A stretch of DNA of 64,000 nucleotides from Protoeuglena noctilucae (GCA_958009085.1 OY253678.1:1-64000); one strand, 5' to 3'; positions 5,887 to 62,000 are shown, counted from the first letter of the stretch. A program made the numbers and translations. The notes: generated by a model from the letters alone, not told the origin.

Positions 5887-8551
5887 TCAGCCCCGCCAGT
5901 CCCGTCCCCGCCCCTCGCCCCTCGCCTCTACGTCCGTGAGCATGACTGCCACGCCCATCATGACGAGCTCAGTGAGGGAGCACAGCGCCGCCTCCACGGT
6001 CGACACGCTCCCCGCCACACGGGGCTTCACCATCGTCTGGAACACCTGGGGTGATGTGAGAGGCAGAGGGAGCGTGTGAATGAGGGGCAATGCGATCGAC
6101 CATCGTCTGGATTACCTGGGGGAGAGACGACAGGGAGAGGGAGTGTGTGAATGAGCGAATATGCGGCAAACCATTGTCTGGAACACCTGGGGGTAGAGAT
6201 GGGGGAGAGAGAGTGTGTGATTGAGAGAACTAAGCAAGCGGCTATGGTCAGTGAGTGCTCCACCTGGGGGGACAGATGGGGGGATAGACAATGTGGACTG
6301 CGAGCGCTCATGCAGTTAGGGAAGCGAGCACAGCGCAGGCAGGGCCAGCATCCCAACAGAGGCGTGGACGCGGTCAAGAGGTGAGCGGCAGCGCAACCGT
6401 GTCTCTCCCCACCTGCGCGTCCACCATGTCGTACATCCACAGCCCGATGCGGGAGAGGGCCACGAAGACGCAGAAGAGCAGCAGCGGGGCGGGGAGACCA
6501 GTGGCGGCGGCGGACCACCCCGCTTGTGAAGACGACTGCCCCGCCGCGGTGTAGCCCAGGAAGAGCGCGGCAGCCACGGCGCACATGGCTGCCTGGGAGA
6601 GGAGGGCCAGGGCGCCGGCGGAGATGATGCCCGCGCGCTTGATGACCTGGGGGGGGGAGAGAGAGAGAGGGGTGCGCGTGAGTGGCGGGGTGGCTGAGCG
6701 GGGGCGTGTCGCAGTGTGCATTTGCATATCTACTGGGGTAGCAGACACACGGTGGCATGGGGCATGGGTACAATGACATGCACGGCGTCACCCGTGCTCA
6801 CCCGCGTTCCTACCCAAATCCCCACGAGCCCCGCCCCCGCGCAGAGGGACCGAAACGCGGCTGCGGCGGTGCCGGTCATGCCCTGCGCGATCAGGTAGGC
6901 GGTGAGGATGCCCGAGGGCGCCATGGCGGTGTTGAAGAAGAGCGCCACGAGGGCGAGGGAGGGGAGGAGGGAAGGCTGGCGGAAGAAGAGGCGCCAGGAG
7001 TCGAGGAGAGAGCTTGTGACGGAGCGGAGGGCGCCCTGGGGGTGGGGGGGAGTGGGGGGTGTGGCACGAGATGGCACCGCCAAGCAAGGGGTGCGAATGG
7101 TGGGGAGAGGGCGTGACATAAGATGGCAGGGCTGAGCAACAGGCGCGTGTGATCGACGATGTGCAAACGGGGTAAGGCATCGTGTCGAGTGCATGCAGAT
7201 CGTGTCGAGTGCTTGCAGCGCCGCGACTGCCCATGTGCCCCATTCTCTTACCATGGCCCCCAGCGCGGCTGCCCCCGTGCCCGCCGCCTCCCTGGCGTCG
7301 CGGTGCGGCGGCTTGTCGAGAGCAGTGCCGCAGATGCGCGCGACGCCGTTGATGGCAAGCACCTGGGCGGGGGTGAGCAAGGCAGCACAGGCGGCCGCGC
7401 TCGCCAGCGCCCCCCCCACCCCCACCCGCGAGAGCGCGAGGCCGAACGCAAAGGTGGCAGATATCTCCGCGACCTGGTCCACGCGGCGGATATGGGCGTT
7501 GCCCTCGGCGAGGAGGGCGGGGCGCCGCTGGGTGAGCACGACCACCCAGTCCCTCTCGATGGCCACATCCGACAGGGCATTCGCCACGCGCTGCAGGACC
7601 TGGAGAGCGCCCAAAGCGCAGAGGTGGAGGGGCTGGAGGAGGAAGGCGGGGTCCGCGGCCGCGCCCCACATGACGTAGAGGGCGGTGACGAGCACCAACG
7701 CGTTCTGGCCCACGAGGATGGCGGTGAGGGCGGGGACGCGGGGGGAGCGGTCGAGGAGGGCGCCGGCCGCGGGCGCCAGCGCCATGGCGGCCAGGTGCTG
7801 CAGGAAGCCGCACACGGCAATGGCGTGGAATCCGCCCTCCATGAGGCCCAGCGTGATGCCGAAGCCGAAGCGCCAGCCGCGCTGAGGGGGTTGGGGGGGG
7901 CGGGGGTGAGAGGGTGTAGACAGGGGTGAGTGGGCGCAGGCAGGGGTGGGAAGTGACGAGTGGCCAGCAAGGGCAGGGTGTCAGCAAGGGCGCAATGGTG
8001 GCTGGGCGACAGTGGCTGGGTGTTAGTGGCAGCAGTTGCAGAGCGGCGCCCACCTCCACGAAGCAGCAGATGGCCCAGGTGACCCAAAGATGGTCCAGGG
8101 CAGGGCCGGGGGGGAAGGCATCAACGTCAGGGGTGGGCGCGCGGGGGCGGCGGGGGGGAGGGGAGCGGGGGAGAGGGTCGGGGTTGGGGCCGTGGGCGCC
8201 GTCGATGGCGAGCCACGCGCCGCGGTCGTCCCCCTGCGCATCGCCGTCCGCATTCGCACGCGGCGCCGGGCCCTCCCCCGCGCCCTCTCCCGCCCCATCC
8301 GCCCCGTCTGCCTCGTCCGCTGACGTCGTGGCAGTGCCCGCCTCGCGGGTGCGGGCGCGCGGGCGGCGGTGAGGGGAGCGGCCGCGAGGTGGGCGAGGGC
8401 ACGGAGGGTCCGCGAGGGGTCGCCGCGGCGCGGGGAGGGGCGCAGGGGTCGCGGACAACTGGGGCCGCAGTGTGCCCCTCATGACCCCGGGATGCGGCGC
8501 CGTGGCGGCCGCGCCGGGCCCCGTCACTGGGAGAGCGCGTATCAAAGACAT
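5887..8551 (-). CDS. Ferroportin / IREG (SLC40) family transporter with a probable organelle transit peptide
   Basis: GALLDRSPR, VAIERDWVV, NAHIRRVDQ, LFFNTAMAPSGILTAYL, ALSRIGLWMYD....Q|VFQTMV. Ala/Pro/Arg-rich N-terminus. Confidence 0.9.
6029..6270 (-). repeat. ~70-bp tandem repeat (3-4 degenerate units), each containing the last ferroportin 3' splice junction
   Basis: ACCATCGTCTGGAACACCTGGGG at 6029, ACCATCGTCTGGATTACCTGGGG at 6099, ACCATTGTCTGGAACACCTGGGG at 6170 and a decayed copy at ~6241-6270. Confidence 0.85.
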
Positions 8552-9382
8552 GCTGGAGAGGTTCTGAGGGGACGGCGGGGCGCGCGGTAGCGGCAGGGGC
8601 CCGAGCGGGCGACCTAGGCTGGGGAGCCAGACGGCGCCCCCGCGCGGCCGAAAGCGGCGAGAGTCTCTTGATCTGCGCCAAAAAGCTAGCAAATCCCTGG
8701 GAATCGGGCGTCTGACCGCGCGCACAAGCGCTGGGCCCGCGGAGGACGCTGTGTGGAGAGGTGGCCAGGCAAGGCCGCCCGCGACGCACGGCTCCAACGC
8801 GCATGGGGCTCTCGGCCGCGCGATGGAAAGTTATGAGCAACTCCAAGCAGAAGCGCCATCCGCGCCCGTCGCTGGTGCGCGGTGGCTCCGCAGGGAGCGG
8901 GCGAGTTGCATGGCAGGCTCCCGCGAGCGCGGGCCGTGAAAGCGCAAGGAGAGACCGCACTATCCATGCAGCATCCGCAGACATTGCGACTGACCTCGAG
9001 CTATGGATGACAGGGTCCGGGAAGCGCTGTCGCCGCGCGCGGAGGCGCGGCTTTGCGAGCGGGCGAGTCGCACCCGCCCGGCGCTGCATGCGGGGTTCTC
9101 GGCAGCGTCCGCCCCCACTGACCGCTCTAATCGCAAGTCAAGAAGTCACCGACACTCCCGGCTTCCTGCGCATTGATCGCGCGGCTAAACGTCGCGGGCT
9201 TAAGGCTAGCTGCGCTCTCTCGCGAGCATCTTCAAGTGCTTGTCTCTGCGCAGGAGTCAGTCGAGGACAGCGCGAGACGAGGAATGACGCAAGCGAGGCG
9301 GTCGACGACGATGGCGAGCCCGGGCAGCACACACGCGCGTTTCAACTGGCGCTGGCAACTGACAGGCCACTACCGCGTGGCG

Positions 9383-12300
9383 TCACTCGGCGTGGACCGC
9401 CGCAGCTGCCGCCATCCATAGACGCCGGACAGCCTCCGCGTCTCCCGCCTCCACAGCTGCCACCACCTTCCCCGCAAAGGCCGCTGCCCCGGCCCCCGCC
9501 TCCGCCTCTGCCACCGCTGCTGCTGCGCCCGCCAGCCCGTGCGCCTCGGCGGCAGCGGCGCGGGCGGCGGCGCGGTTGACGACGGAGGTGGGCAGCCCCG
9601 CGAGCCTCGCGACGTGCGTGCCGTATGACCTGGGGCACGGCCCTTCCGTGAGGCGGTAGAGGAACGTGACGGCGTCGGGGCCGGGTGCGGCGCCCCCCTC
9701 TGCGCGGCACGCCATGTGCATGGTGCGGACGCGGCCCTGGGGGGAGGGGGGCAGGCGGGGAAGAGTGAAGGGGACAGTGGGGGCAGGCAGCGGCAGCGGG
9801 GCAGAGCGACAGACGGTGGCAGACAGCATGAGTGGCTGGGCATTGTTAGGCATGTCCCATCCCTTTGCCATGGCCGCCCCCTTGCTCGCCTGGTGCCTGG
9901 CCTGCGCCTCCTCCGCCAACGCGTGGTAGTGCGTGGCGAAGAGCCCCCTGCACCGCGTGACGTGGGCGATGTGGCCGAGCACAGCGGATGCGATGGCGGC
10001 ACCGTCCAGTGTGGATGTGCCCCTGCCCAGCTCATCCACGGCCACGAGGGACGCCTCGGATGCGCGTGACAGCACCGCCGCCGTCTCCGCCAGTTCCACG
10101 TAGAAGGTGCTCTGCCCAGCCACGATGCGGTCGCGGGCACCCATGCGCACAAACACGGCGTCGCAGGGGGTCTGAAGGGGGGGGTGGGGGTCAGGGTTTG
10201 CAGTCGTGACACACGTGCGATGAGAGAGATGTGTGAGCGGCGAGAGTGATGTATGTGCGATGAGATGGCGCAAGTGACGCTCATGCCAATGCCGCGACTC
10301 GCCATCTCGAGGGACGTGGCCGGCACCCAGGCCCCCGCCTGCGCCATCACCGCGGCCAGGCAGACCTGCCGCAGCAAGGTGCTTTTGCCGCCCATGTTGG
10401 GACCCGTGAGCAGCGTCAATGGGGGGCAGTCACCCCCGAGGTGGATGTCGTTGGGCACGAAGGGGGCGCCTGCCTGGGTGCGCACGCTGGCGGGGTGGGA
10501 GAGGCCCCTTGCGATGAAGACGGGGCCGCGATCGGAGTCAGAGAGGATGACGGGGCGCACCATGGAGGGGCCGCCCACCTGGGAGGGCGTATACGGGTGA
10601 GCATGGGTGTGCGATGGTGCATGTGCGCATGAATGTGCAGTCTCCAGTCACACCTGCATGACACATGGCAAATGTCTAGCATATGTCTAGTCTTCTCACT
10701 CACCTGTGCGTGCACGGCAAGGCTCATCAGGGCGTCCAGGTGGGCGCAGGCGCGGACGGCCGACCGCCACGTGGCCCCTTCCGCCCCGAAGCGCCTCAGC
10801 AGCGCGGCCAGCGACGCCGACAGCGCCGCCTCCCTCGCCCGCCGCGCGGCGTCGAGCGCCTTCACCAGATCTGCCAGGTCCGGGCACGTATATCTGCGGA
10901 ACCCCTTGCGTGTGCCTGCCAGCTCCCAGTCTTTGGGCACACGCCCCGTGTCGCTGTCCGGCACCTCTACCAGATGCGACTGGCTGCCCACGGAGACGAA
11001 GCGCGCGTGGCGACACACGCCCCTCTGCGTTTCTTGCAAAAAGGACTCCAGAGCACCCTCGGCCTCCTCCACCGCTTGTGCCGCCTCATCACACGCCGCG
11101 TCCACCCCCGCCGCCGGCACCACGCGACCCTCCTTCTCCGCTGTCTCCCAGTCCGCCGCCTGCCGCAGCGCCGCCAGCCGCGGCGCCAGGTCTGGGAATC
11201 CCTGCCCCGGCGTCACCAGGCGTCGGAGGAGGGGGGACGACAGCGAGCCACGCACGCCTGGGGAGAGAGGGGGGGGGAGAGGGGGTGGTGAGTGCAGTGG
11301 GAGTGCAATGCAGTGACGGTGATATGCTGAGGTCAAGAGGGGTTCGAGAGCGGCAAGCATAGTGCAGCATCCACTCCCGTCGCCATCGCACAGTCGCACG
11401 CAGCTGCACGTGTGCACCCATTGCCATCCCCATTCATCCCCATCCCCTGTTGCGAATCACACTCACCGTCGAATGCCGCCACTGCCTTGGCCAGGTCTTC
11501 GAGTCCCCTCAGCGCCGCCGCTGCCATCCCCACCCTGCGCCTGGCCGCGTCCTCGTACAGCACCACCCCCGCGGCATCCCTGCCCGTGCCGCCACCCTCC
11601 ACCGCCGCGGCCAGGCGGGCAAGGGTGCGGTCCAGGTCTGGGTGTGAGAGAGGGATGGGATGGGGTGTGGTCATCTCACGAGTGCCATTGCAGTGCCGCA
11701 CCGCGGCAGTGGACAGGTGCAGTTGCGGTAACAGCAATCGCTGATGACTCCACACCTGCGACCCTTCTCTAGCACCTTCCCCATCACCCATCCACCCCCC
11801 CACCCTCATCTACTCTCACCCGGCACCTTCCCCATGACCCATCCACTCTCCCCATCACCCATCCAACCATTCACCCACCCCCATCTACTCTCACCCGGCA
11901 CCTTCCCCATGACCCTCCGCGCCTGCACCATGGCTTCCCCCCCCTCCCCGCAGAGAGCAGCAACGGCGTCCTGCCTGGCGCGGATGTCTGACACGCGCGT
12001 CAGGGGCCGCAGCAGCCACTCCCGCAGCAGCCGCCTCCCCGCGGCCGTGGCGCAGTGGTCGAGTCTCTCCAGCAGCGTGCCATGCGTGGTGCCCTCCGCA
12101 TTCGACACCAACTGGGAGGGGAGGGGGGGCACAAGGGGGGTGACTAAATATGAAAAGCAGAGAGCACAAGTGACATGTTGATGACCCATGCGCATTCGAC
12201 ACCAACTGGGGGGGGGGGGAAGAGGGGAGGCACAAGTGACATGTCAATCAACCATCCGCATTCGGCACCCAACCACTGCAGACGCACATGTACACACCAC

Positions 12301-15300
12301 CATTGCACATCCACTCCCACCCACCACCACCGCACACTCAGCTTTCCCGTCTAATTACCCATCTCCCCTCCCATTCAAACTCACCTCTAGGTTCTCCAGC
12401 GCCGCCCCATCCAGCGCCATGTGACACGGCACGCCCTCTCCCTCTCCCTCCCCCTCCCCCTCATCTCCCTCCCCCCCCAGTCCCCCCGCGTTCCCCATCG
12501 CCAGCACTGCTCTGTCCAGCAATGCCTCTCTCAGGTGCGCATGGGCCAGCCCCACTGCACACATCGCCACCTCCCTCCCCCTCTCCACCAGAGCTGCCAA
12601 AGGGGGTGGCAGGGCGTTGTCTGCAAAGTACCCCCCCCTCCCGCAGCGCAGTCACCGCCTCCCCCGCCCCCACCCCCCCCCGCTCCTCCCACCTCACGCC
12701 CCCCACCGCCGCCCGCACCGTCGCTCTCGTCTCAGCCACCAGTGCCCCCTCCCCTCTTGCCACCACCACCTCCCCCACTTGCCTCGCTGCCAGGTGCGCA
12801 CGCAGCGTCGTCCGCAGCTCGTCGTCCTCCCATTCCCCCGACAGCAGGCGGCCCGTCGACACGTCCACGAAACACGCGCCTGGGGGATGAGAAAAGAGAG
12901 AGTGGGAAATTGAAATGCGGAAATGCACATTCCCCCCTTTTGTCTAGTTTTAAGCGTTGTTGAACATGCGGGGTGTGTTGCTCTGTGTCCCCAGTCGCGC
13001 CTGCATGTGCACGTGCATACATGCATACACCCCCCCATATAACTGCCCCCACTCTCACCGATGCGCGTCCGCCCCTCCGCCCCCTTCCCCGGCATCTCCG
13101 CCAGCGCTGCCAGGTACACCGCATCCGTGGAGCCGTGGAGCATCTCGGGGTCGTGGAGCGTGGCAAGCGTAAGGATGGCAACCACCTGAAGGAGGTGAGC
13201 GTAGGGGTGGGTGAGTGTGACATGGTGAGTGACTGTGGTGCCCATTTACCTCTCTGTACCACTGCGCATGCCCCTCGCTACTCCCCTCACCACCCTCCTC
13301 ACTGCCCCCCTCACTATCCCCTCATTACCCCCCTCACTACCCCCTCATAACCCCCCCCCCCCCCCCTCACACCCCCACAACCCCCCTCACCTCCCTCCGC
13401 ACCACCTTGTCCGCCGTCAACCCCTTTGCTCTCCTCTCCCGGTTCCTCTCCGCCAATCCCTCGGGGGTCTCCGTCTGCTCCACCACCACCACCCGGTGCC
13501 CCGCACGCGCCAGCCTCTCTGCGTGCCTGTGGTAGTTGTTCTCCGGGAACCCCGCATGTGGCTGGTCGCCCCTCATGTACTGCAGCCCCAGCACCTCCAC
13601 CCCCACGTGCGCGTCCATCTCAAACATCTCATAGAAGCGACCCATCTTGAACAGCAGGACTGTTGGGGGTGGGGGGGGGGTTGATTAGATAGTACTATAA
13701 CATTGGATGTGAAGACATAGAGGGGGTGGGAGTAGCACACAAGCACACACAGTCGCAGTGTTAAGAGAGGGTGGGTGCGAGGGTGTTGGGCGCCCCAGTC
13801 TTCTCCCTCACCCGAGTCGAAGTGCTTTGATTTGAACTCCCACCACTGCCGCTGCCCGTCCGCCACCTTGTGCTCCTTGAACCAACCAGCCGGGATGGCC
13901 AGCGTGCGTGGGTCATAAGCAGGGTCGCTGGGGCGGCGACCGTGGGCGTCGCGGATCTGAGAGAGAGAGGGAGTGGGGTGTGCGTGAATGAGAGTGTAAG
14001 GTGGGTTGTATGATGCTGAGCGAGAGGTGGGGTTGGCAGAGAGAGGGTGACAGCAAGCACCCCGCCCACCCCACAACCGGCGCCGCTCATTGATTGTCCC
14101 AACCCCCACCCCCCCCAAAATCCTCCACCCACTCGCCTTGTCCGGCCGCAGGAATGCAAATTTGGGGTCCGCAGCCCTCGCCGCGAACTGCGCGCTCTCC
14201 CCCCCCAGCCCCACCGCCAGCGACCCCTCCACCGCACCCCCCGCCACCCCCAGCGCCTGGTGCATGCGCGAGGCGGCGCCGGGGAGAGGGGTGCGCGCGG
14301 GCAACGCCGCTGGTAAAGCCGCAGACGTAGTGGCAGCCGGGACAGCCGTTGTCCCCATCCCCTCTGTCGGGTTAGGGGCTGACGGGGAGGTCACCCCATC
14401 ACCCCCGCTTGCACCCCCGCTTGCACCCGCACCCCCGCCCCCGCCTTTGCCCTTGCCCCGCCCCGCCGCTTTGCGAGCAGGGCCTGACTTGCTCCCCCCC
14501 TTGGCTGCATTCCCCTTCGCCGCCGCCCTCGCCGCCCCCACCGCGCGGCGCTTGGGGGCAGGGGCCGCGTCACTCCCACTGTCGCTGTCTGCACCATCGC
14601 TGCCACCGTCGCTGTCATCTGGGGGGTGAGAGAGAGAGCTGCACGTCGCGCTTATTGCCTCTCATCAATCCATAAACCCTGAGAGCTTTTAAACACAAAC
14701 GTGGTTCATCGCTACCCATCCAGTAGTAGTACAATGAACAACCCCCCCCCCCCCCTCACCGCTGCTCTCCTCCACCACCCCCTCCATGGACGCCTCTTCA
14801 TCGCTGGATGACCCATCGCTGGCAGCGAAGTCAGAGTCGCCGCTGTCGTCGTTGTCAGAGGGACTCTCCTCGTCCGACGATGACTGGGGGGGGAGAAGGG
14901 AGAGGTGGGATGGGAGATGAGGGGACAGACAGAGTGACGCGTGCCATCCCTCACTCCCTTGGTCACCCGCAATGACCAGTCCATGTGCACCCAATGCACT
15001 CCATGCATGACCATGCACCCCATGCACTCTCAATGCACCCTAGCTGCACCCCCAATGCACCCTTATTGCACCCTTCCTGCACCCCCCCATGCACCCCCCC
15101 CACGCACCTCCACCACCGCCCGGCGCTGGGCAGCGCGGCGAGGGGCAGGGCGCTTGGCGGGCCCCGCGGGTTCCTTCGCATTGGCACCTCCACTCGCACC
15201 GCCCCTTGCTTTGCCAGCCCCCGGTGCTTTGCCAGCCCCCTGTGCCTTGGCACCCCCCGCCCGAGGTCGCTTGGCGGGGGGGGAAGGCGACGGTGCAGCA

Positions 15301-15799
15301 GCGGGGGCGGGGACGTCCCGCGCGTTGTTATCCGGCGACTCGGCGCGGTCGTCGGTCCCCGGCCGCAGCGGTGTGGGGACCCGGACGGGGGTGGCGCGCG
15401 CGGTGCCGGTGGCGGGGGGGTTGGCATCCGAGGGGGCGGTGTCCGGAGTCTCGTCGGGGCGCTTGGAGGGGGCCTGAATGGAAGCGGATGAAAGATATTG
15501 TTACAAAGATTCTGTGACGCGAGGAGAAAAGGGCGGGCGGGCAGCGGCGGGCGCGCGGGAGCGGGGCTGCGCGAAGGGAGCGCCTTCAGCCCGAGCACGA
15601 TCCCCGGCGAGGCGCGATGGACGGCGATGGGCTTTGTAGGCGAATGTATTGCAGAGAATGTGCGAGGCGCGGGGTGCCGCAATGCCCGTAGGGCCTGGAG
15701 TGGGCTGCGCAAGCGTGTCGCCTTGGCGCCCGGAGTGAAGAAGGACGAAATGGACCGCTGCCCCGCGGCGGGGGTGGCGGCGGCTTTCTTGGGAGCCAT
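9383..15799 (-). CDS. MSH6: DNA mismatch repair protein MSH6
   Basis: N-terminal PIP box QRSISSFF, YDPRTL..P, QWWEFKSKHFD, FKMGRFYE, EQTETPE, ALENLE, Walker A LLTGPNMGGKSTLLRQ, DELGRGTST, LFATHYH, GPCPRSYG. The clamp domain is present, which argues for MSH6 rather than MSH7. Confidence 0.96.
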
Positions 15800-16327
15800 C
15801 GCTGGCGCAGGCGGGGAGGAAGCTCGCCAAAAGCGGAGAGCGCGGCGCGGGGAGCGCGGCGTGCGAGGGGCAAAGCGGATGCGCGCGCGTCGGGGCGCGG
15901 ATGGGTGCTAAGATCAGAGGGAGAGATTCTTAGAAGCTACGAGCGTCGCGCGGCCGAGCGTCGCCCCTCGGCGGGCCCCGGGGGGGAACGCGCGGGGATT
16001 CGAGCGTGGTGCGGCGGGAAGGGCGCCCGGGGTCGCGCGGAGCTGCCGAGGCGGGGCCGGAGTTTGTCCGGAGATAGTCGCACAAGTGATTGTTCAGAAA
16101 CGCCGCTTGGGCAGCCAATCGGGTCAAGACCGGGCCTGTTCAGGTGCCGTCAGACAGCCGGAGCGGCATGACGCGCGGGCGCCGGGCACAGACACCGGCC
16201 CATGCGTGCCATGATCCAAACCGACACCCACACATAAATTCAAACTAAATGAAGCGCCAGCTGTGACAGCAATCGTTCAGTCAGGCTGCCCCTGCTAGCT
16301 ACCCCACTCACTACCCCCACTCCCCCC

Positions 16328-19300
16328 TCACTCCCCCCCCCCCATGATGTCGTGTTCTCGGAACCTCTCCCGCAGCGCCTCCGCGGCCCTCTCCTCCCCC
16401 TCCCTCCCCACCTCGCAGGCCTTCCAGTCTGCCCGGTCCGGGCGCCCCGCCAGTGCCGCCGCCACCTCCCGCGCAAACGTCATGGGGTGCCTGGGGGGGG
16501 GAGGATGGGTGCATATGGGTGACTGGGAAGCAAACGGTGGATGGATAGGGACTGGGTGACAGAGGACCCATCGATAGCGACGCCACGATCACAATGACCA
16601 ATAGTGTTGACCAGTCTGGCACGCAATCAGCCACCCTCCCCCACCCCCCCACCTCTCCCCCTGCCTTATGACGTGCACCATCCTCGTGCCGTCCGGCAGC
16701 GTGAATGCCAGGTACTCCATGTCGCCCACGTAGTCGCGCATCCGGTCGCGGCCACGCTCGCCCGCCTCCGCGGGGAACACCTGGGGGGGATGAGGGGGGG
16801 AGAGATGGGAATGAGATGGGGTTGGGAAAAGATGGGGCCATCGGAGGTGAGTGTGAGGGATGAGATGGGGGGAGACGTGGGGTGAAGAGATGAGGCATGG
16901 AGAAGTTAGATGTGAGAATCAATCAGAAGGGGGCATGCGAGGGTGAGATGTGAGGGGTGAGATCAGGCATGGGGGGATGAGCCGTGGGGTTAAAGATTAT
17001 AAATATGACGCCCCCCACCGCTCCACTCCCCTCGCCTCCCATCACCCTCGCACACCGCAACGTGGCACAGTCATCCCCCCCTGACTTGCCCCCCCCATCC
17101 CCATCCATCCCCACACAGTCACACAGTCACAGTATCGCACTCCCCCACTCTCACCTCGAATGCTTTAATGCCCGCCTCCGCCCCCATCTTTGCGATGAAC
17201 TCCTTCGCCCGTGCAGCCACCTGGGGCGACACGGGCACCAGGTTGACCTGCATGTGGTTGCCGCCCTTCTTGCGCAACGTGAGGTGTCGCTCGAACATCA
17301 GGGGCTGGCGGCCGGCGGAGGCGTACATGGCACGCACGGCACTGCGGTGGGGGAGGGGGAGAGGGTAAGAGAGGTGCATGGCAATGAGTGGGAGAGGCGT
17401 ACATGGCACGCACGGCAGAGAGGGAGAGGGAGAGGGAGAGGGAGAGGGAGAGGGAGAGGGAGAGGGAGAGGGAGAGGGAGAGGGAGAGGGAGAGGGAGAG
17501 GGAGAGGGAGAGCGGAGCATGGCAGTGCAATAAAAGGGAACAGAGGCGCACACACAATGACCCTATGTCTACAAAGCATTGCACCTGCCCCACTCACATC
17601 ACTCACCCGTAGTGCCTCTCCCTCTCCCTCTACTTCACCTTCACTACACCTCTCCATCTCATCTACCACCTCACTCACCCGTAGTACCTCTCCATCTCTT
17701 CCATCACTGCTCACCCGCATCACTTCACTCACCCGTAGTACCTCTCCATTTCGTGGTGCGCCGACTCTGGCAGTGCCAGCGAGGACGGGAAGTGCTCGAT
17801 GGGGATGACCTGGACGTGCATGTCATCGATGGGGGCCTTGTCCATGCACACGTAACTCTCCTGGGGAGACGAAGTAATAGAGAGAGATGGCAAGCGGTAA
17901 CTCTGTCTCTTATGCACAATCCAAGTGGTAGGCACCATACAGTGGCACGAGCTGTGTGCGAGTGTCACACAGCGCAAGCCATCGCATACCGAGTGCGTGT
18001 GCGACAACTCCCACCACCACCCCCACCACCCCTCTCTCTCTCCCTCGCCTGTCCGATGGATACGACGAGCCAGCTGGAGCAGTTGGGATTCGACAGGCAG
18101 AACCAGCACCCGTCGACGGGCTTCACGTCACGCGACCCCGCCCCCCCCTTCGCCATGTCCACCCCCACGTCGCGGCCCATCAGCTTCATGCCATTCATCT
18201 GACACGCCTGCGTGGGTGGATGAGAGAGAGTGTGTTTGAACAGGGTTCGTGGGGCAAGTAAAGATGCTTGGTTACGCTGTACGATTGGAGGGACCGCAAC
18301 ACGCATGGATTGGCACCCCCACTGCCTCTCATCCCCCGTCGTCATTGCCATCTTAATCATTCTCTCATATCTCCTGCCATTGCCATCCCCATGTCATTCT
18401 CTCCCCCTGCCCCACCCCTCGCCTTCTCCGCCGCCGCCACATCCGCAAACTGCATCAGCCCCCACGAGTGCAGCTTCCCCTCGGGAGTGGCCCCGCGTCG
18501 GTAATCCTCGACCACGCCACAGCCGCGGAAGAAGTCCACCACGTCCGCCTCGGATGCCTGCGTGAGATGTGGGGGTATGAGATGGCTTAGTGATAGAGCA
18601 ATAAACAAACCACGTCCGCCTCGGATGCCTGGGATGGGAGAAGGGAGATGAGTGCAAGCATGATAATAGCGCTCAGTAATTAAGAATGAAGGACAGGTAC
18701 AGCGCGACTGGGTGAACACAACAGACACAACGGGGGGATTGGACTTCTAATATGAGCCCACACTCCCCCTCCCCCCTCCCCCTCTCACCGCGTAGGGCAG
18801 GTTCCTGAGGAACACCGTGCACCTGTGGTCGCGGATGACGCCCGCCTTGCCACGCGATGGCTCTGCCTGGGCCACCTTGGCGCGCTTGCCCTGCCAACGC
18901 CAGGTGTGGTCACCCAGGTGCTCCGACTCGTCATCTGGGGGGGAGACATGAAGCGGGAGAGGGATGGTATGTGTGGTGGCAAGTGCGATCGACGCTTGAC
19001 ACGTGCGGGGGCATGCTTGGGAGGTTGTGAGCCTTATTGTGTGTGACGTGGTGCCCTGCCTCACCTGCCTCCCTCTCCCGTGACTGTCTGCCTCACCTGC
19101 CTCCCTCTTCAGTGCCCCCTCGTAGGGACTGGCCGTAGTGTCGGGGGGGCGGGCGGCAATCGCATCGGGGCCCATCTGGGACGCAGGGACCACCTGGGTG
19201 GGAGACACACGAACGACAAAATATAATACTGTTTGTATTGTGTATATGATAGAGCACCAGTGGCATCGGCTGAGTCACTTGGAGATGCACAGTGGTCGTG

Positions 19301-20661
19301 GCAGCAGCCGTGTGACCCATGGCGCGTGTCAGCTATGCAATCAACCCCGCACCTGCAGTGCGTGAAGGCTCTTCAGTTTGGCGTCATTGCCCACGGATGC
19401 GAGGGAGATGAAGCGCGTCACGTGAGACCCGGTGCCCACATCCCTGGGAAAGACGCGTGAGAGAGAGAGCTTGGTAGCAACAAAACGATTGGTTTACTGC
19501 ACTTGCACTGACACAGCGGCATAAGGCGTGCTTGGCAACCGCGCTTCTCCCATTCGCACTCACCGGTTCAGGTAGGGCTGTCGCTGCCAGAACACGCCCT
19601 GCCCCCCCGCCACGTGATACCTCGGCCGCAGCACCCTCGCCAGCTCAGCCAAAATCGGGGACCCCGCTGCCGATGCCTGGGATGCGCCATCGGGGAGGGA
19701 TGCAGCAAGCACGCCCTTGGCCACCCCCCTTGGCCACTCGCATGTGAGGAAAAAGTCGACGTCGGTGGCGGCAGCAGCGAGGGACTGCGAGAGAGGGAGG
19801 GGTGGGTGAGGGTGTGAGGTGCGTGGGAGCAGGAGCGCATGCACGGGGAGGAGAGACGGTGCGTGACGGTGAGGGAGTGCGGGAGCAACACTCCTCCCAG
19901 AAACGTATGCGCAAGTGTCAGCCACCGCACTGTTTGGTGTGCACGAGCATGGGTCCTCAGTGCAACAAGACTGTCTCGACTCTAAACAACCCCCTCACCT
20001 GCAGTGCGTCGAGGTCGGTGCGTGTGTAGTGCGCGGGGGGAGGGGCGGCACCCGCAGGCGCAGGCTGCGTGGAGGCGAGGCCGTCGTAGGTGCCATCCAG
20101 GAAGGCCACGCGCAGGCCAGCCACCTCGGCCACGCCATGTCGGCCCAGGTAATGCACATTCCCAAAAGACGAGGCGCAGGCCTGCACGCGAGGGAGCTTC
20201 GACAGGTGTGGGCGATGGATGTGGCGTGGGGCAGATGGGTGCAGCGAGGCGCCTGCGCTGCGAGGTGGCGATCGTCGCAACGGGCAACCCGCACCTGAAT
20301 GCCCGCCACGCATCCCTTGCCGAAGCCGCCGAGGAAGTAGGTGGGGACGGGGGCGCGCTTCTCGCCCGTCAAGTACGGCAGCAGCTCTCCCAGATCGTCG
20401 CTCTCCTCCTCTGCGGAGACATTCCGCGAACTTTCATATATCGCATCTCGTCATCGGCGCCCTCTGCGGGCCGCTATGGCAGAGCGCAGCGCGCCTGGGC
20501 TGCCGCTCACCGGTTGGACCAGCGCTTGGCTCAAAGAAGGGGCCCACACAGAGCAGCACGTCGAACGGCCCGCTCTTCGCATTCACGGCTGCCACCCGCT
20601 GGCAGAGCTGGTCCATCCGACCGCCCACATCCCCCGTAATAAGCACGCGTTTGGCTGCCAT
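16328..20661 (-). CDS. CWF19L1: CWF19-like protein 1 (Drn1-type) with an internal RRM
   Basis: N-terminal metallophosphoesterase-like domain (VLITGDVGG..NAKSGPFDVLLCVGPFF, DFFLTCEWP, LRPRYHVAG, HVTRFISL); RRM (TVFLRNLPY..GLMQFAD); CwfJ C-terminus (CWFCLSNP, HVQVIPIEH, HMQVNLVP, FAREV, RADWKAC). Confidence 0.93.
17418..17512. repeat. (GAGAGG)n microsatellite, ~16 units, intronic
   Basis: Perfect hexamer array inside a CWF19L1 intron; it is a pure pyrimidine tract on the sense strand. Confidence 0.95.
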
Positions 20662-20954
20662 CCCGCCCTCACGGCGGGCAGCCCAGGGCCGCTGCCGGGC
20701 TCCTCGCTAGGCCCCTCCCCGTCGCGGTGAAAAGCAACCTTAAAACTCGGGAAACTTGCGAGCGATGCGGGTGAGCCGGGGCGGTGCAATGCGCTGTCAA
20801 CGCGCTGTCAGCGTTGCGCGACAGCACAGCGTCGCGATCTAGCCTCCGGACGACGGATGGCTCCGGATTAAGCGTCAGAGTTACACAATGATGTCGCGGA
20901 AAGACCATAAGCGCCCAAACAGGCGTCATCGGGAAAACCGCGAGTCTGGCGTCA

Positions 20955-21090
20955 GTAGGATCATCCCCGTGATACCCAGGAATCGTGGGGATCATCCCGC
21001 TGATCCCGGGGTATCAGAGGGATCATCCCAGTGATCCCACTGACGACACAGACTGTAATGTAAACCCTCATTGAGCCCAGTGATTCCAGC
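20955..21090. repeat. Left subterminal repeats of the transposon (GGATCATCCC, GTGATCCC-like units)
   Basis: Three GGATCATCCC copies ~31 bp apart, interleaved with TGAT(A/C/T)CC units. Confidence 0.8.
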
Positions 21091-22303
21091 CGCGCGCCCG
21101 ATCTCCCTGGGGAGGCCGTTTTACGCGGCGCGGTTACGGCCACGGCGCACCCGGGATGCGAGAGGCCGCTGGGAGCAGTTTCGCGGCATTTCGTCGTGGT
21201 CGGGGATCGCGGGGAGCGGGGCCCACTCGGGAGCGCAGCGGCGCCGGAAGCGTTAGCCGAGGCTATCCCGCCGCCTATCTTCCTTCTCGGCCGCGATCAG
21301 ACCTATCTTGATCGCGATCGGACGCATCTTTTGCGCACGCGCGCTCCGGGGCCCGCGCGGCCCGGGGGGCTCCGTTCGGCCCGTAATCGCTCCCTAGCGT
21401 AGCTATTGGTATTTCAATCCCTACGCCGAGGTTACATGACCATCCGTGACGCTCTAGGCAACGCACTCATGCACGCACATGCAGCCGGACTCGGGCGGCC
21501 GCAGGCGCGACGGGAGCGCGCAGCGACCACCGCCAGAGGCACCGACCGCTTGTTCCGGACGCTGCCGCTCCATCGGGGAGCGGCGCTCCGGCACTCGGGC
21601 CAGGCACTCGGGAGATGGTGGCGTGCGCGACTCCGCCGTGCCGACGTCCGCCCCAGGAGTCGATGACCACCGCTGCGGGGCGCCGCGGACGCCAGACGAC
21701 AGACAAGGGGCATGGGTCGGCGGACGAGCCATGGCGGGCCCGGCCAGCACCCGACCAGCGCCGGAACTTGGGACGAGGTGGCACGTGCGCCTGCGTGCTT
21801 GTTAGGCGAAGTTAGAGTCAGTCTCGGGGTGAGAGAGTGCAGGCACGGTGCCAGGTACAGTAAGCAAGTACAGAGATACCACGCTGGCGGACCAGCCCTT
21901 CGTCCCTCCCAGCCAACCAACCCCCCCTTGCACACCTGACCGTGTCGCAGACCCCACCGGTAGCGCAGCAGACCAACCGCGCACCTCGGGGACAGCGACA
22001 ATGTCCGACCTGATCTAGTCATGCGTATGCTGCATCTCACCTCACGGGAGCTGGCCCCTCCCCTCCCCAGCCACGTCAGCACACCTCGCAGATGGCTCAG
22101 CAGCAGGCTGCACTCTCACCCTAGAGAGGGACGATGATCCAGCGCTGTTCGCACCAGCAGCGCCGAGCCTCGCCTGTGCGCGGTGCTGTCGCTGCAGCCC
22201 TGCAATCCACCCCCGCTTGCCTGGAGGACTGACGACCCCTGAGCCTGCCTGACCCACAGAGCGCGCGCTGGACTTTCCTCACCTCCGCTTCCACGCCCTC
22301 ACC

Positions 22304-53005: not shown

Positions 53006-53251
53006 GCGAGGGTGGATTTGTTGCACAAGGGCACGCGCAAGGGGTTTAGGGGCACGAGGGGAGGAGCGTGTGTTAGTGTCCTGAACGTGGTGCCTGAGAC
53101 TGTGTGCGACTATGTTGAGAGAGATGGGCGTGTGACTGGGTGTCTTGGTGAGAGGTTGAACCCCACTTGCAGTGGGCTAGAGTAAAAGGGCGCTCATTGC
53201 TTGCTTGCCAACAGCCACATCGACAGCCACGGCCATGCTGACCCATGCACC

Positions 53252-55315: not shown

Positions 55316-56053
55316 CGCCGCGACGCGCGGGCCGCGCGAAGGCGGCGACAGGGCAGAGATGCCCTCTGTCGTGCGACATTGGCAAGATAGGGCAAGATAG
55401 CGCCACTCCGTGCCACCCTGGCTGGGTAGGTTTAGGGTACGGCACAACGGCCGTCGCTTTGAAGCAAAGCGCGGCTCGGTGAACTGCCAATCGAGGCTCT
55501 CCTTCAATGGCTGGCAAACCGTCGCAACAGCAACCAGAGACAACTGCTCGTTGAGATAGCATGCACGCATATGCGAACGACAGTGCTGCTGATGGTCAGA
55601 ATGGCAGTGGTATCAAAGCCTGAGGGACGAGGTCCTGTGGTACGAGCCGACTGAGATGGAGCAGACCTACTGGAAGATCTGGGGCACGAGGCCCCTGACA
55701 GAGATGCTGGGCTGAGACGGACGAGTTGACGGTCAAGTCTGAGGGGCGCCATCGAGCAACGTCTCTCGATCGACAAATGCGTGCATACCCACTGCGGGCG
55801 CGGGTTTTGAGGCCGCAACACGTCACAAGCACCGCGTGACTGGCAAGTGCTATGTAGGTGAAATCCCCTCCTGGGCCACGCCTCTGGCCGCGTAACCGGC
55901 GCGTCACGCGTCGTTGGCTTCATTACCGTGGCATGCGTCGACTGACATAGACCAAATCAAGCGGGATTATAATCGGCGCAATGCAGCAAACAACTGGCAA
56001 CTCGTCTCACATATTAACAAACTCGCCGCTCCCATCCCATCACCCCCTCCCGC

Positions 56054-59000
56054 TCATCGCCCCGTGGCGAAGGCGTGGGTGCGCGGCGGGTCGGGCGACG
56101 CGCACAGCGTGACCTCGTGACTCAGCACCGCCACCGGCGTCCCATCCTCCACCGCCCGTGCGTGACCCACCCCCCCGAACCCCAGCGCCACGTGCTGCGC
56201 CACTGACGGTTTCACGGCCGCCAGAATGAGCGTGCCGGCAACGGACGCCGCCACGAGGCCCATGGACAGGGAGAGGGTAGGGTGGCCGGTGGAGGCGGCC
56301 GCGTGGGCGCGTGTCAGGGCGCCTGACAGCACCTGCGCCAGCTCTGGGCCGAGGAGAGACCAGTGCCTGGGAGGAGGGAGAGGAGTGGTTGTGGGGGAGT
56401 GATGGGATGGGAAGGGGCGGATGGGTGGGTGTGAGGGGAAGGTGCTCGACCGCACACGCAACAGGTCTGCTGCCTGCCTTGCTCCCCTCACAACTCTTAC
56501 TGACCCGCATCTCTGTTCTCTATAACTTCCACTGCACCCACACTTATCCCTGCCCACCACAGCCACATCACCCACCCACCCACTCCCCCTCGCCTGGCCT
56601 CCATCACTGCCCCCACCAGCACCTCCAGCAGCTCTGCCGGCCCCAGCCTCGTCATGGCCTCTGCTCTGCGCGCCTGCAGCCTCAGACGACTCAATTCACT
56701 CGAACAGAGACGAAGCATCAAACGACGGGGGGCGGGGGTGGCGGCGGTGGTGGTAGCAGGTTGGTTAGCAGTGGGGTGGGCGGTGGTGGTGGTGGGGTGC
56801 GGTTGGGTAGCAGTGGGTTGGGTGGGGTGGCGAGTGTCAGTAGGGTGGCGATTGTTGGCGTTGTTGGGCAGGCGAGGGTCGGTGGGGTGTCGAGGAGTTG
56901 CGATGGCTTCGACGAAGGTCCCGACGGATGCCAGGGGTCCCACGTTGCTGAGGCATGCGCTGACGAGGGAGTGGAGGCGGGCGTGGGCGGCGGCGGGGTC
57001 GGGGGGCTGGGGGGGGGGGGAGGGGGGGTGGGGTCGGTGAGGAAGGGATGGGGTTTAATGTGATGAGGGGGATAAAGGGTAGAAGTGAGTGATGACATCA
57101 CTAACCTCAGTATCATTAGCCTCAATCACAGTTACTTGGTGCCACACCATCCATCCACCACCACCTGTCCATCAGTCGTCATCCCTCATCTAATCACCCC
57201 CTTATATACAACCCACCCACCCCCCACCCCTCGCCTGCTTTTCGTCACCTCTCATCCCATCTACCCCCCATATACCACCCACCCCTCTCCCTCGCCTGCT
57301 TCCCCGGCGTCATCGCGGGCATGGCTGCCGCCAGTGCCTGCGCCAGTGCCTCGGGAATGACCTCCATGTGCGCCTGGAAGCGGTGCACGCGGGTGCGGAG
57401 GAGGTGGCCAGCTGTGTAGGGGGGGGGAAGAGGGGAGGGTGGTGGTGCATGTGAAGATGCGTGTTGATGTCTGTGTGTGTGAGAAAGAATGGCAGTGACT
57501 ACATCACCCTCACACTTCCCCCCCCATTCACTCTCCCACTCTCCCACCACTGCCACCCCCCCCCCCCCCCCCCTCACCTGTCACGTACGCCTCCCTCCTC
57601 TCCATCCCCGACAGGTCCGGCACGTACAGGTCGTGCTGAAACACCTCGTCACTGCCAGACACGAGGCCAATGGGGGCACAGGCGTCCACGGGGCCGGCAT
57701 ACACCACGTCGTCCACCGAAGCTGGGGGGAGTAAATGAGGGATAGTGAGTCAAATGCAACAGTATCTATGCTTTTGCCATCTAGTTTATATTCCCTCACC
57801 CACTCCCGCACACACTCACGCACCCCCCCCGCCCCCCCCCCCCCCCCTCACCCGCCATGCCCTCCCCATCCCCACCAATTCCCACCTCCTCACCAGCAAC
57901 GCCCTCTATCCCCCACCCCCCACCCCTCACTCACCCGCCATCCCCTCCCCGTCCGCCCTGGCGTGCACGGTGGCCGCTGCCCGGTCAAATCCCTTCTGAA
58001 AGGCACCCAATCGCGACGCCCACGCCACGTACCAGTTGCGGAGGGCAGAGGCGTGGCGCGGGGGGGGCTGGCCGGGGGTAGAGGGGCAGAGCACTTGCAT
58101 CTGGGGGAAGGGGGGGTGGTGAGGGGGTAATTGGGCATGGCACTTGCATTTGGGGGGGGGGGGGGTTGATGAGGGGGTGATGGGGCAAGGCATGTTTGAT
58201 ACAAGGGGTGGGGAATGTGAGAAGGAGTTTGGCACAACACGTGTCATGATGCAATGCGATGCTATGCGGTGACTCCATCTCTGCCACCACCCCTTTTACA
58301 ACCTCTCTCCACCCCCACACCACCCCTTCACCACACCCTCCCCACCCCTTTCACCCCCAACCCCCCACCAACCCCACACCCCCCCCCCCCTCACCAGTCC
58401 CTGCAGCGCGTTGCTCGTCCTCAGCCCCGCCCCCACATCCTCTGCCATGCGTCTCAGAAACCCATGCGACTGCCTCAGGGCTTCCCCCAGGTCCACCTCC
58501 ACCCCCGCCTCATCCACACGCACGTGCAGCCGAGCGCGTTTGCACATCAGAGCGGAGAGATGAGGGGCCAGGCGACGGGAAAGGGCAGCCGCGGTCACTG
58601 CCCCACCCGCACTACCACTGCCACCCGCACTGCCACTCCCACTGCCACCCGCACTGCCACTCCCACTGCCACCCGCACTACCACCCCCACCGCTACCACC
58701 CCCACTCCCACCACCCCCACCCACGGTATTCGCGCCATCGATGGCCATCATGGCTTCCCACGCAGCGCACAGCGCACTCATCGCCGCCCCCCACACCCTG
58801 CTCCCATGGGGGTGGTATCGCGCATGCATAGCACACAAGTCATCGACACACGCCCCCTTGCCACCGCTCCCCGCCATCCCCGCAATGCCCAAGAACGCCA
58901 TCGCGCGCGCCAGGCACCGCGCCTCGACGGCACTCAGTCCCAGCAGTGCCGCGGCTCTGTCGCTGCTTGTGCGTGGGGTGGCGTGGGGCGCGTGCGATGC

Positions 59001-62000
59001 GGTGGCCAGATCCGCAGCTGTGATGTCCGGGGGAGGGGTGGAGAGAGACCAGGAGCCGCGGAGTGAGAGTGGCGGGGTGGCGTGGGACGAGGTGGGGTTG
59101 GTGCTTGGGTGAGTATGCGAGTGTGCGGCGTGGGTGGTGAGGGCGTCGGCAAAGGCGTCCGGGAAGAGGTCGTCCCTCCTTGGGCCGAAGGAGGAGGCGC
59201 GGAGGAGATACTCACTGAGGGGGACGGGGGGGAGAGGGTGATTGAGTGAGGGAGTGAGGGCGTGAGAGGGGGGATAGGGATCGAAGTGGTGAATTCGCGT
59301 TTATCCCATCCCTGCCCCCCCCCCCCCCCTCACCCCAGTACCGCGGGCAGCGCGGCGACCATGGCCTTGACGACGATGCGCGGCACGAGGGCGTTGAGCA
59401 CCACCTTGACTAAGGCCGTGGGGACGGGGAGGGAGGCGCCGGTGAGGGACTTGGAGAGGTCGACGATGGAGAACTGGGCACCACTGAATGGGGGGAGAGG
59501 GGTGGGGGTGAGTGAGTGAGTCAGTGGGTGAGTGAGGGAGTGAGTGAGTGAGTCAGGGAGGGAGGGAGAGACTGTGTGTGTGAGTGAGAGTCTAGGAGAG
59601 TCTAGTCTAGGAGTCAGTAGGTGATAGAGAGAGAGGAAGGGACTTAAAGAGATTGACAATGGCGAGCTGGGTAACGCTTAAGTACACACCCATGCACTGC
59701 CACCCCCACTCCCTCTGCTCACCATCGCTTACACAAACACCCCCAACCCCATCCCATCTCACCCCGGACACTGCCACCCCGTGGCCGTGGTGTATTCCGC
59801 CGTGACTGCCAGCGTCACGATCGCCCTCAACGTCAGCTCCTGCGCCTGCAGGCTGGGCACCTTGGACCCGGAGTCCCCACGCAGGCGAAGGCCGTGGATG
59901 CGGATGTCGAGGAGGAGGCCCCTGTGTGGGGGAGTAATTGAATGATTGAGTGATATAGTGGTTGAGTGATTGAGTGAGTGGTGAGAGGGTGTGCGTGGAT
60001 GCGGATGTCCGACCGGAGGAACATGGGTGTGGGAGTGGTTGTGTTGGCGAGTGTTGCACACGGGCAGAGTAGCAGAGATGCTGGGCTACACACGCTGCAC
60101 GCAGCACGTTCCCAGCATCGTAATGCAGCACGTGACTTTCGCACCCCCCATTACCCACTCTTACCTGGGATCCCCCTCCGCCCCCTCCGCGTCCCCCCAC
60201 GACGCCGACCCGCCTGGCAACGACCCTGCTGCCCCACTCTCTGCTTTGCCACTCCCCATTCCCCCAGTCGCTGCTCTGGCACTCTGGTTAATACCAGGCA
60301 ACGACCCTGCTCCCTCAGTCTGCTCTTTGCCACTCGGAGCATGGGCATTTGGTTGAGCGCCCGATGCCGCACCGCCACTCCCCGTTGCCCCAGTAGCTGC
60401 TTTGGAACTCCGGTCCCCTCCCACACTTACACCGCCACTCCCGCCGCCACTCCTCACTCCCCCCATCTCTGCGCTGGCAGCACTGCTACCCCTGGCATGC
60501 ACATGCGCGCCTGCATTACCACTGCCCTCCCTCGCACCCGCACCCGCACCCGCCTCCCCACCACCCCCACTACCACTCACGCCTCTCCCATCGCTCGCCA
60601 CCTCATGCCCCCCCCCTGCCCCACCGCAGCTCTCCTTCATCGCCACCTCCACCCCCTCCACACCCACTCCCCGCATCTCTGGCATTGTCAACGACACCGC
60701 TTCCCCATGATTCTTGGTAGGGGCACTCATCGCAACCCCACCGTCACCCGCCACCCCCAACCCATCATGCCCATCCCTCGCACCCTCCCCTTCCCCATCC
60801 ACCCCCACCCCGCCACTCCCACCACCCCTCTCCATACCACCCTCACCGCCACCCCCACTGCCACCCCCCATACCACCACCCCCCACATGCCCCCCCCCGT
60901 GCACAGACTCCCCACTTACGCCTTCCCCCACCCCAGCCCCCACCCACGAGGCGTGTCGTGACGGCTGGCCTTCCTCCCCACTCGCATTCACCGCGAACCC
61001 CGTCAGGTCTTGGGACGGCACGCGGGGGAGGGGGTGGCCATGAGCGGTGGCAGTGGCAGTGGCATGGGTGGAGTCGATGTGAGGGGGGCGGGGGCGGTGG
61101 AGCATTGCGAAGAGCTTCTGGGGATGAGAGGGAAAGGGATGAGACATAAAAGATATGATATATAGTACACTTGATATTGGCCAATATCTAGCAACACGTC
61201 AGCACTCCTGCATGCAGCTCTGCCATTCCCCCACCCACCCCTCCCCCTCACCTCCCCCATCCCCACTTTGGCCCCACCCCCCGTCGACGCCGCCTGACTC
61301 TCCGCATCCCCATCCCCGCGCGTACCCCCACCCGTCACCGCAGCGCCCAGCTTGCTGCCCATGCGGCTGATGGCGCCGCGCATGCGCTCACGCAAACGCC
61401 CACCGCTCTCGGGGGAACCCTCGTGGACACTGCCATTGCCACTGACACCCATACCAACACTTCCAACCAAATTACCACCACTGCCACCCATACCACCACC
61501 ACCCATATTCGCTGCCACTCCCAGGTGCCCCGGCGCCCCCCCCGGCAGCCCCCGCCTCCGCGCCAAGCTCAGCGGCGCACCCACGCCCACGCCCGCCACC
61601 CCCCCGCCCTCACTCGCATCGCCTGCACTCGACAGCATGTGATACCTCGTGCCCCCCTCCTCTCCACCCCCACCCTCCTCCACCCCATCTCCCACCGCAG
61701 TCTCCACCTCCCCCATCACCCCACCCCCTGTCTCCCACACCACCCCCCCACTCCCCCCCCCGTCTCCCGACGGTTCCCTCATGTCCCCCTCATTTAGGGG
61801 CTCTAACCCCATTCCCTCCCCTTCCCCCTCCGATCGCTTCGCCAGTTTCGCCATCGTGCTCCGGAGCTTGTCCCTCGCACTCAACAAACTCCCACGCAAC
61901 CCCGCCCCCTTCGCCCCACTTTTCGACGCGCTCCCACCGCCCGCCTCTTGCCCCGGCGATGCCTGCGCGCTCGACGCTGGGCTGGAAAAGGGGTACTTTG

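Follow-up and report, generated by a model that had tools for sequence, protein, structure and literature searches.

Copies of splice junctions inside the introns that they bound in a 64-kb window of Protoeuglena noctilucae

What process leaves copies of a splice site, together with the adjoining exon bases, inside the very intron that this site delimits? The question is raised by a stretch of 64,000 nucleotides (nt) of Protoeuglena noctilucae DNA (GCA_958009085.1 OY253678.1:1-64000; the whole stretch is hereafter called the window), in which an initial annotation made from the sequence alone had listed 13 groups of such junction echoes. All 13 were found at their coordinates, six on the acceptor side (A1-A6) and seven on the donor side (D1-D7). 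The results given below showed that junction echoes are real and supported by RNA, and they point to the echoes probably being local DNA duplications, tolerated because the outer site is used, with no special element involved.

All 13 groups sit in minus-strand genes, which by Pfam encode ferroportin (5.7-8 kb), MSH6 (9.4-14.6 kb), a CwfJ-domain protein with an RRM (16.3-20.6 kb) and a divergent P450 (34.7-37.1 kb); the remaining gene, at 56-60 kb, gave no family match in Pfam. Five unrelated genes had been counted previously. That several genes are affected held, and the number itself may be four to six according to how gene models are fused or split, since the custom Viterbi gene finder used here joined the RRM and CwfJ parts as one gene and cut the 56-60 kb gene in two. 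Ten groups (A1, A2, A3, A4, A5, D1, D2, D3, D4 and D7) were robust, with an exon-derived part of 10-24 nt plus the splice motif. A6 was decayed, and D5 and D6 were marginal because their similarity was mostly that of the donor or splice consensus.

Contigs of three metatranscriptomes (including X9 and X11) and of one independent DNA metagenome (X5) were aligned to positions 3600-23599. The X5 contigs covering 3600-7059, 16340-17410 and 17573-20953 showed no difference from the window. A1, A3, D2, A4 and D3 are therefore present unchanged in independent DNA and are not assembly artefacts. In the RNA contigs the outermost copy was spliced at A1, A3, D2 and D3 (three introns), the other nine groups lying outside the aligned stretch or away from the joints listed; the MSH6 region 11.6-12.9 kb was without RNA cover in X9 and X11 and is uninformative in either direction. 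The junctions of A2 and D1 were supported by MSH6 tblastn matches ending within a few codons, those of D4 and D5 by P450 tblastn matches, and that of A4 by an RRM match, so that RNA joints, tblastn and Pfam ends together placed nine of the 13 junctions. For D6, D7, A5 and A6 the junction was taken from our own ab initio model alone.

The gene finder was trained on 11 RNA-supported introns and homology-supported coding pieces; these 11 introns were readable among the 15 RNA joints listed (24 further joints exist) after small adjustments of the cut. It reproduced every junction named in the initial annotation. When antisense predictions were dropped, 110 introns with a median length of 157 nt were obtained, or 109 once an artefactual micro-exon at A4 was merged.

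The echoes exceeded chance. At 8 of 220 junctions the adjoining exon 12-mer recurred, with at most one mismatch, within the intron of that junction, whereas non-cognate pairs of junction and intron gave a match in 24 of 23,980 cases, corresponding to 0.22 expected (Poisson tail 1e-10). Junction cores of 16-30 nt likewise had 12 copies in their own 10 introns, whereas the other introns, about 17.6 kb for each core, gave two matches.

In the ferroportin gene, A1 (6029-6304) is an acceptor-side array in intron 6046-6412 with a period of 70-71 nt and about three to four units, the first three of which each include 17 exon-derived nt and an intact CAG. The real junction lies at 6045/6046, and an RNA joint 6042 to 6410 (cut shifted by +3) was found in both X9 and X11. 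Two groups belong to MSH6. D1 (11778-11915) is a donor-side duplication of period 75 in intron 11638-11894, in which 21 exon nt and an identical donor are repeated; the high-scoring segment pairs (HSPs) of the MSH6 tblastn search stop at 11884-11899, around the real junction at 11894/11895. A2 (12095-12272) is an acceptor-side array in intron 12112-12384 with spacings of 94 and 66 nt and an exon part of 15-17 nt, and its CAG is kept in the first echo and lost in the second.

The CwfJ/RRM gene holds four groups, two of them in one intron, 17342-17732, both ends of which are marked by the RNA joint 17341 to 17733. At its acceptor, A3 (17318-17417) repeats 24 of 24 exon nt 76 nt upstream, and the AG of this echo has been overwritten by a (GAGAGG)n microsatellite at 17418-17517. 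At its donor, D2 (17594-17752) comprises two copies, 54 and 126 nt downstream (spacings of 54 and 72 nt), which hold 15-17 exon nt and identical donors. A4 (18538-18633) is a patch of 23 of 23 nt (20 exon nt and CAG) 71 nt upstream of the junction 18557/18558, with unrelated flanks; the RRM match begins at 18557, and the decoy outscores the real acceptor. The A4 echo at 18611-18628 is preceded by a strong CAG and followed by GT, and a putative form with this stretch as an 18-nt in-frame micro-exon and a 53-nt mini-intron was the choice of the gene finder. D3 (19056-19110) is a donor-side patch of 21 of 21 nt (12 exon and nine intron nt) 32 nt downstream of the junction 19096/19097; the RNA joint 18934 to 19097, in X9 and X11, defines its intron as 18935-19096.

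In the P450 gene, D4 (35015-35154) is a donor-side duplication of period 76 in intron 34874-35130, with 21-24 exon nt and an identical donor, and the P450 tblastn HSPs stop at 35131. The marginal D5 (35760-35820) has a spacing of 39 nt and matches 9 of 12 exon nt, next to a junction at which the HSPs stop at 35805. The 56-60 kb gene holds the four groups with ab initio junctions. D6 (57204-57301) is a 61-nt duplication (65 nt at 74%) that adjoins a GC-type donor and includes six exon nt; D7 (57826-57954) is a donor-side duplication with a spacing of 83 nt (period 42 in Tandem Repeats Finder, TRF) that keeps 18 of 20 exon nt and an intact donor. A5 (58074-58192) is an acceptor-side array of period 49 and 2.4 units, with 10 exact exon nt and the echo AG mutated to AA. 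A6 (59893-60009) lies at a spacing of 101 nt and can be read as a 16-nt exact block or as 43 nt at 77% identity extending 29 nt into the exon.

Two further minus-strand cases, both with ab initio junctions, were added to the list. At 45472-45592 three 40-nt units extend from the donor of intron 45367-45586, each with an intact GGTGAGC; the exon overhang is 2-3 nt when the sequence is read directly and 14 nt in the BLAST alignment. At 59450-59680 an old echo (34 nt at 79%) of the start of exon 59334-59483 lies about 193 nt upstream, within intron 59484-59762. The low-complexity stretch 13186-13390 is possibly another echo. At 60213-60335, 42 nt of a predicted first exon (60165-60259) are repeated 81 nt upstream in unannotated sequence, and this is either an in-frame coding duplication or an acceptor-side echo with a longer exon part.

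The echoes confront the splicing machinery with sites that are often as good as the real ones. By position weight matrix (PWM), all 10 donor echoes scored, from eight groups, reached the same score as the real donor, and four of seven acceptor echoes kept a strong CAG, the AG being lost in the other three, in line with the earlier remark that some echoes keep AG or GT and others have lost it. The reading frame had also been said to demand the outermost copy in each case. Of 12 decoys that are intact or nearly so, 11 bear this out, since their use would give a frameshift or a stop; the exception is D1, whose decoy (+75 nt) would insert 25 codons in frame without a stop. As for the proposal that the spliceosome must ignore intact decoys, the PWM scores agree with it as far as sequence goes, and the RNA contigs showed the outer form only, such contigs being blind to rare or low-level use of an inner copy.

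Concealment of the decoys by RNA structure was considered and rejected: introns were no more stable than their dinucleotide shuffles (mean z -0.43, 85 introns), and in 10 of 12 comparisons the decoy, not the real site, had the higher predicted accessibility. Branch points could not be mapped by motif, CTRAY being found at -48 to -8 in only 7 of 90 introns.

Two forms of echo were distinguished by TRF and BLAST. Seven groups (A1, A2, A5, D1, D2, D4 and D7) are head-to-tail tandem arrays of whole units, with periods or spacings of 49-94 nt; TRF arrays of period 71, 75, 49 and 42 cross junctions. The patch-type echoes A3, A4, D3 and perhaps A6 are perfect blocks of 24, 23, 21 and 16 nt, located 32-101 nt away, with flanks that are unrelated or overwritten. 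Unit boundaries were sharp in gapped alignments. Over all echoes the exon-derived part measured 6-34 nt and the junction-proximal intron part mostly 37-79 nt. In none of the 14 loci did the exon part exceed 38% of the unit (Kolmogorov-Smirnov test against a uniform distribution, P=3e-8, with the BLAST value of 14 exon nt taken for 45472-45592), and this short exon overhang is a robust regularity.

These features suggest how the echoes may have formed. A splice site with its junction-proximal intron and a few exon bases would be copied once or twice alongside, the spliceosome would pair the outermost donor or acceptor and leave the extra copy inside the intron, and the result would be an unchanged mRNA and a longer intron. 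Duplications within exons, or those shifting splicing to the inner copy, would be purged by selection, as is suggested by the frameshift or stop to which nearly all decoys would lead. The outer site presumably must also keep its own contiguous intronic module adjacent, either the G-rich stretch past donors or the branch and pyrimidine region ahead of acceptors; a unit with too little intron would part the real site from this module and favour the decoy. Such a requirement would account for units that are mostly intron with a short exon overhang, for the length of junction units, and for short duplications being seen only inside introns. Acceptor-side units would then have to carry their own branch site. 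What was observed directly is the repeats themselves, their presence in independent DNA, the use of the outer site at four junctions, intact decoys and the consequences of their use for the frame.

A background of local duplication in introns fits this account. A local copy 20-150 nt away was found for 3.9% of complex 12-mers in introns, 1.2% of those in exons and 1.1% of those in unannotated sequence. With loci defined objectively by a length of 16 nt or more and an identity of 88% or more, low complexity excluded, nine junction, nine purely intronic, four unannotated, one exonic and two mixed loci were obtained, the mixed ones being one exon/intron and one exon/unannotated. Strong loci thus numbered one in 28 kb of exon as against 18-19 in introns and junctions (17.7 kb of intron), and the sole strong exonic locus is an in-frame 21-nt coding repeat. 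This repeat lies in a predicted minus-strand exon at 39841-40211, has about 16 units and is the only strong exonic tandem repeat. Since introns are short, a large share of tolerated duplications of 50-100 nt must cross a junction; with the median intron length and periods of 50-100 nt the geometry gives 40-70%.

Placement was compared with a uniform null that took each locus's period and the real intron lengths into account. In the strict k-mer-defined set 9 of 18 loci touched a junction (expected 7.4, P=0.28), and with low-complexity loci added 11 of 24 did so (expected 10.6, P=0.52).

Several observations weigh against local duplication at uniformly distributed sites as a full account. Among loci with periods of at least 45 nt, 9 of 10 were at junctions (expected 5.6, P=0.025), and among BLAST-significant loci scored per intron 12 of 14 were (expected 6.6, P=0.003), although both tests were post hoc and small and one locus is of low complexity. 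This excess among long or strong duplications is unexplained by uniform placement. The short exon overhang needs an extra assumption there, which the module requirement above would supply. A4 and D3 are not simple whole-unit duplications. Echo cores matched the exon at 216 of 226 positions, about 96% (a hand sum over the robust groups with the first 10 exact bases taken for A5), whereas intron-derived flanks were 62-78% identical or unrelated; judged from the alignments, this gap exceeds the two-fold difference predicted by neutrality and appears awkward for plain neutrality. On the side of the evidence, the contig check spans 3600-23599, with the loci at 35 kb and 57-60 kb outside it; RNA contigs conceal rare isoforms; 99 of the 110 intron models are ab initio from our own finder; and its recovery of 9 of 11 training introns is a circular measure.

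The strongest rival is a duplication process anchored at splice junctions, in which exon/intron borders would be a hot spot for short duplication or for repair by templated insertion. Composition changes sharply at these borders, becoming G-rich past donors and C-rich ahead of acceptors, and this change could be one reason for such a hot spot. It is strong at both intron ends: in introns of at least 100 nt the mean GC skew of the sense strand was +0.32 (G-rich) over the 5' third and -0.50 (C-rich) over the 3' third, and 63 of 85 introns showed both features. Besides the junction excess, the invariably short overhang and the perfect cores with unrelated flanks of A4 and D3, an anchored process would account for the longer periods of junction loci (median 75 as against 30 for internal ones, Mann-Whitney P=0.0008). 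The tests on which this rival draws were nevertheless made post hoc, with 14-24 loci of a single window; the uniform null is in agreement with the k-mer-defined sets; and the apparent clustering of periods at 70-76 nt was not significant (scan P=0.11). Moreover, an exon copy frozen by selection keeps junction events detectable for longer, and by hand calculation a 2- to 3-fold longer detectability would move P=0.003 to about 0.08. We know of no mechanism with such a junction-anchored footprint. Targeting is therefore not regarded as shown, the tests being post hoc, small and aided by the selection-frozen junction copy, and this explanation is rated doubtful.

The initial annotation had posed just this choice, between a general process of short duplication whose products survive only when spliced out and a mechanism targeted to junctions, and had named junction duplications no commoner than the intronic background as a finding that would refute its claim. 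The outcome was mixed, since junction loci were not significantly in excess in the k-mer-defined sets and were in excess in the long or strong sets. The general process gives the best fit, with head-to-tail copies, the outer site in RNA, decoys that break the frame and the geometry of short introns; targeting is not needed for the k-mer-defined sets, and the excess in the other sets, together with the short overhang, leaves room for it.

Maintenance of the decoys for a function is less probable still, and we consider it an outside chance. They could serve as extra landing sites for U1 or U2AF that define short GC-rich introns, or as unproductive sites tuned through nonsense-mediated decay. The donor echoes that score as real donors, the four strong acceptor echoes, the cores far better preserved than their flanks and the predicted accessibility of the decoys would all agree with such a role. 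Young age, however, would suffice for intactness, D1 being 98% identical over 42 nt; three acceptor echoes lack AG, and RNA contigs contained only the outer form.

That the pattern marks new or mobile introns is very improbable, whether they came from an exonic AGGT proto-splice site duplicated in tandem, a way of gaining introns that has been documented (PMC2891723), or from introner-type elements with long target-site duplications. In the AGGT model the 5' end of the intron should repeat the first bases of the downstream exon and its 3' end the last bases of the upstream exon, whereas each echo here lies past the donor or ahead of the acceptor from which it was copied. The copied exon stretches also code for conserved residues of MSH6 and P450; the pattern is thus not that of AGGT intron birth. 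The AGGT candidate was rejected also on size, introns of 162-391 nt exceeding periods of 32-101 nt. Introner elements were rejected by an all-against-all BLAST of the 110 introns, which gave eight weak matches (the best 44 nt at 82%) and no family similarity, so that within the window the introns are not introners. Finally, an assembly artefact or wrong gene models, for which the breaks of short-read metagenome contigs inside some repeats (e.g., at 11836 and 17410) and the four ab initio junctions might be quoted, are highly implausible given five groups unchanged in DNA contigs of another study and nine of 13 junctions placed by RNA joints, tblastn and Pfam ends.

Local duplication around a junction has precedents in single human genes. 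Human minisatellites that start across an exon/intron border occur in F7 IVS7 (37 bp), IFI6 (6-16), CBS IVS13, LMNB2 (100 bp) and PDGF (81 bp) (PMC1557585), and the pseudo-donors of F7 are functional yet outcompeted by the most upstream site (Borensztajn et al., PMC1557585). The window resembles them in that a unit includes the last exon bases and the donor, the real donor has identical pseudo-donors downstream of it, splicing uses solely or mainly the site farthest upstream, and unit sizes are similar. It differs in having 2-4 copies rather than 5-25, in having both donor and acceptor sides affected, in an exon part of 6-34 nt instead of the 4 nt of F7, and in about a dozen loci within 64 kb of one alga rather than isolated human genes.

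The acceptor side has a counterpart in CBS 844ins68, a 68-bp duplication of an intron/exon junction with strong preference for the distal site (PMC2630376). Likenesses are an acceptor-side junction duplication of about 70 bp, close paired sites with the outer (distal) one preferred, and removal of the duplicated exon piece to give a normal mRNA. Unlike this single human polymorphism, the acceptor-side echoes of the window comprise A1-A6 and the case in intron 59484-59762, and four of the seven acceptor echo sites that were scored keep intact decoys. The echoes are thus of the F7 IVS7 and CBS 844ins68 type, a local duplication of junction-proximal intron with 6-34 nt of exon.

In Drosophila, intron gains by tandem duplication of the AGGT proto-splice site have been described under the Rogers model (PMC2891723). 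A short tandem duplication that meets splice signals and an extra copy that is spliced out are common to both; in that model, however, duplication within an exon creates a new intron of the size of the duplication, whereas in the window an intron already present gains length and its echo sits on the side of its source. Introners, for their part, occur in Micromonas, Aureococcus and other algae. The window is like introner-bearing algae in being marine and GC-rich, with short introns of repetitive content, and unlike them in having no shared intron family, its repeats being copies of each gene's own junction. An intron-length peak is described for Pelagomonas (PMC9481584). In open-access full-text literature no report was found of such repeats at this density on both intron sides in one genome. 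The earlier statement that echoes had not been described at such density therefore needs qualification: the kind is known from single human genes (PMC1557585, PMC2630376), and a genome-scale report was not found in that literature.

Other features of the window were recorded. Its GC content was 60-73%. It begins with about 43 units of a CCCTAA-type telomere repeat (1-251), indicating a chromosome end, and a tRNA gene at 881-954, 630 nt inward of the telomere repeat, was the sole match in an Rfam scan of the window. The host is a marine organism according to public runs: 92-94% of sampled words of 9500-19400 were present in two metagenome DNA runs of another study, and metatranscriptomes contained about one quarter of them. 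The closest relatives of the MSH6 protein were from green algae, with identity of at most 49%. Pelagomonas, with 0.45 introns per gene (PMC9481584), was rejected as the source, and so was Chloropicon, in which the telomere is TTTAGG-type and genes have on average less than one intron (PMC12301720). The P450 at 36133-37086 was highly divergent, its best match having 30% identity (E=1e-10) among 1.84 billion representatives searched with HMMER, its own open reading frame (ORF) P0121 excluded; a word-based search for relatives returned only that ORF, and the distant HMMER relatives were used solely for placing exon ends.

When metagenomes were scanned with an MSH6 exon, no relative came up. A second scan, with the best homolog, P0001, gave 19 loci, at one of which, that of P0001, a single uninterrupted match covered 3,861 nt for 1,287 residues; judged by this match the P0001 gene appears to be intronless. 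The other 18 loci had 38-51% identity. Neither scan gave a same-species locus, and none of the 19 loci was used.

With regard to splice sites and introns in general, a GC donor of the form GCGAGG was found in 2 of 11 RNA-supported introns (5805-5925 and 17861-18048), and GC donors occurred in 31 of 110 predicted introns. The corresponding share in Emiliania is about 60% of donors (PMC4028052), well above that of the window. Ferroportin intron 7036-7251 is 216 nt long, a length divisible by three, and lacks a stop in frame, so that its retention would preserve the frame. An RNA joint defines a minus-strand intron at 23099-23301, where the gene finder placed a plus-strand gene.

From 20926 to at least 23599 the depth rose abruptly to about 25 times that of the neighbouring sequence, in DNA and RNA contigs and in all four runs, and different loose contig ends converged at 20926/20927. 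The region 20926-23599 has the look of a multi-copy element's edge, and Pfam matched none of the ORFs at 20.7-25.8 kb. Two X5 DNA contigs bridged 12681 to 13349 with one or two C between, so that 667 nt (12682-13348), including MSH6 coding sequence, were missing. Either a true deletion variant or a de Bruijn join made at a repeat rich in C could explain the gap.

What is new here is a dense set of echoes in one algal window, the kind of duplication itself having been described before. The echoes represent a concrete route by which short introns lengthen while the protein stays untouched. If their density were confined to this subtelomeric window, they would be an ordinary consequence of tandem duplication in short introns. 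A bolder reading, to which we give little credence, is that the introns of this alga grow mainly from their ends, a splice site with an intronic module of about 50 nt and a short exon overhang being preferentially re-copied by a junction-anchored process of duplication or templated repair, with intact decoys in perhaps one tenth of introns genome-wide and a strict rule that the outermost site is used. Were that so, nature would have provided, in this one genome, a collection of hundreds of donors and acceptors that compete with identical copies of themselves.

The choice among identical neighbouring splice sites is still debated in terms of scanning, proximity or exon context, and has been studied mostly in a few human minisatellites and in artificial constructs. 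The window supplies about a dozen natural cases, on donor and acceptor sides, several with decoys as strong as the real site, and the short exon overhang is a measurable regularity that any model of splice-site context must account for. If the rest of the genome is similar, ordinary RNA sequencing could examine the outermost-site rule at hundreds of loci.

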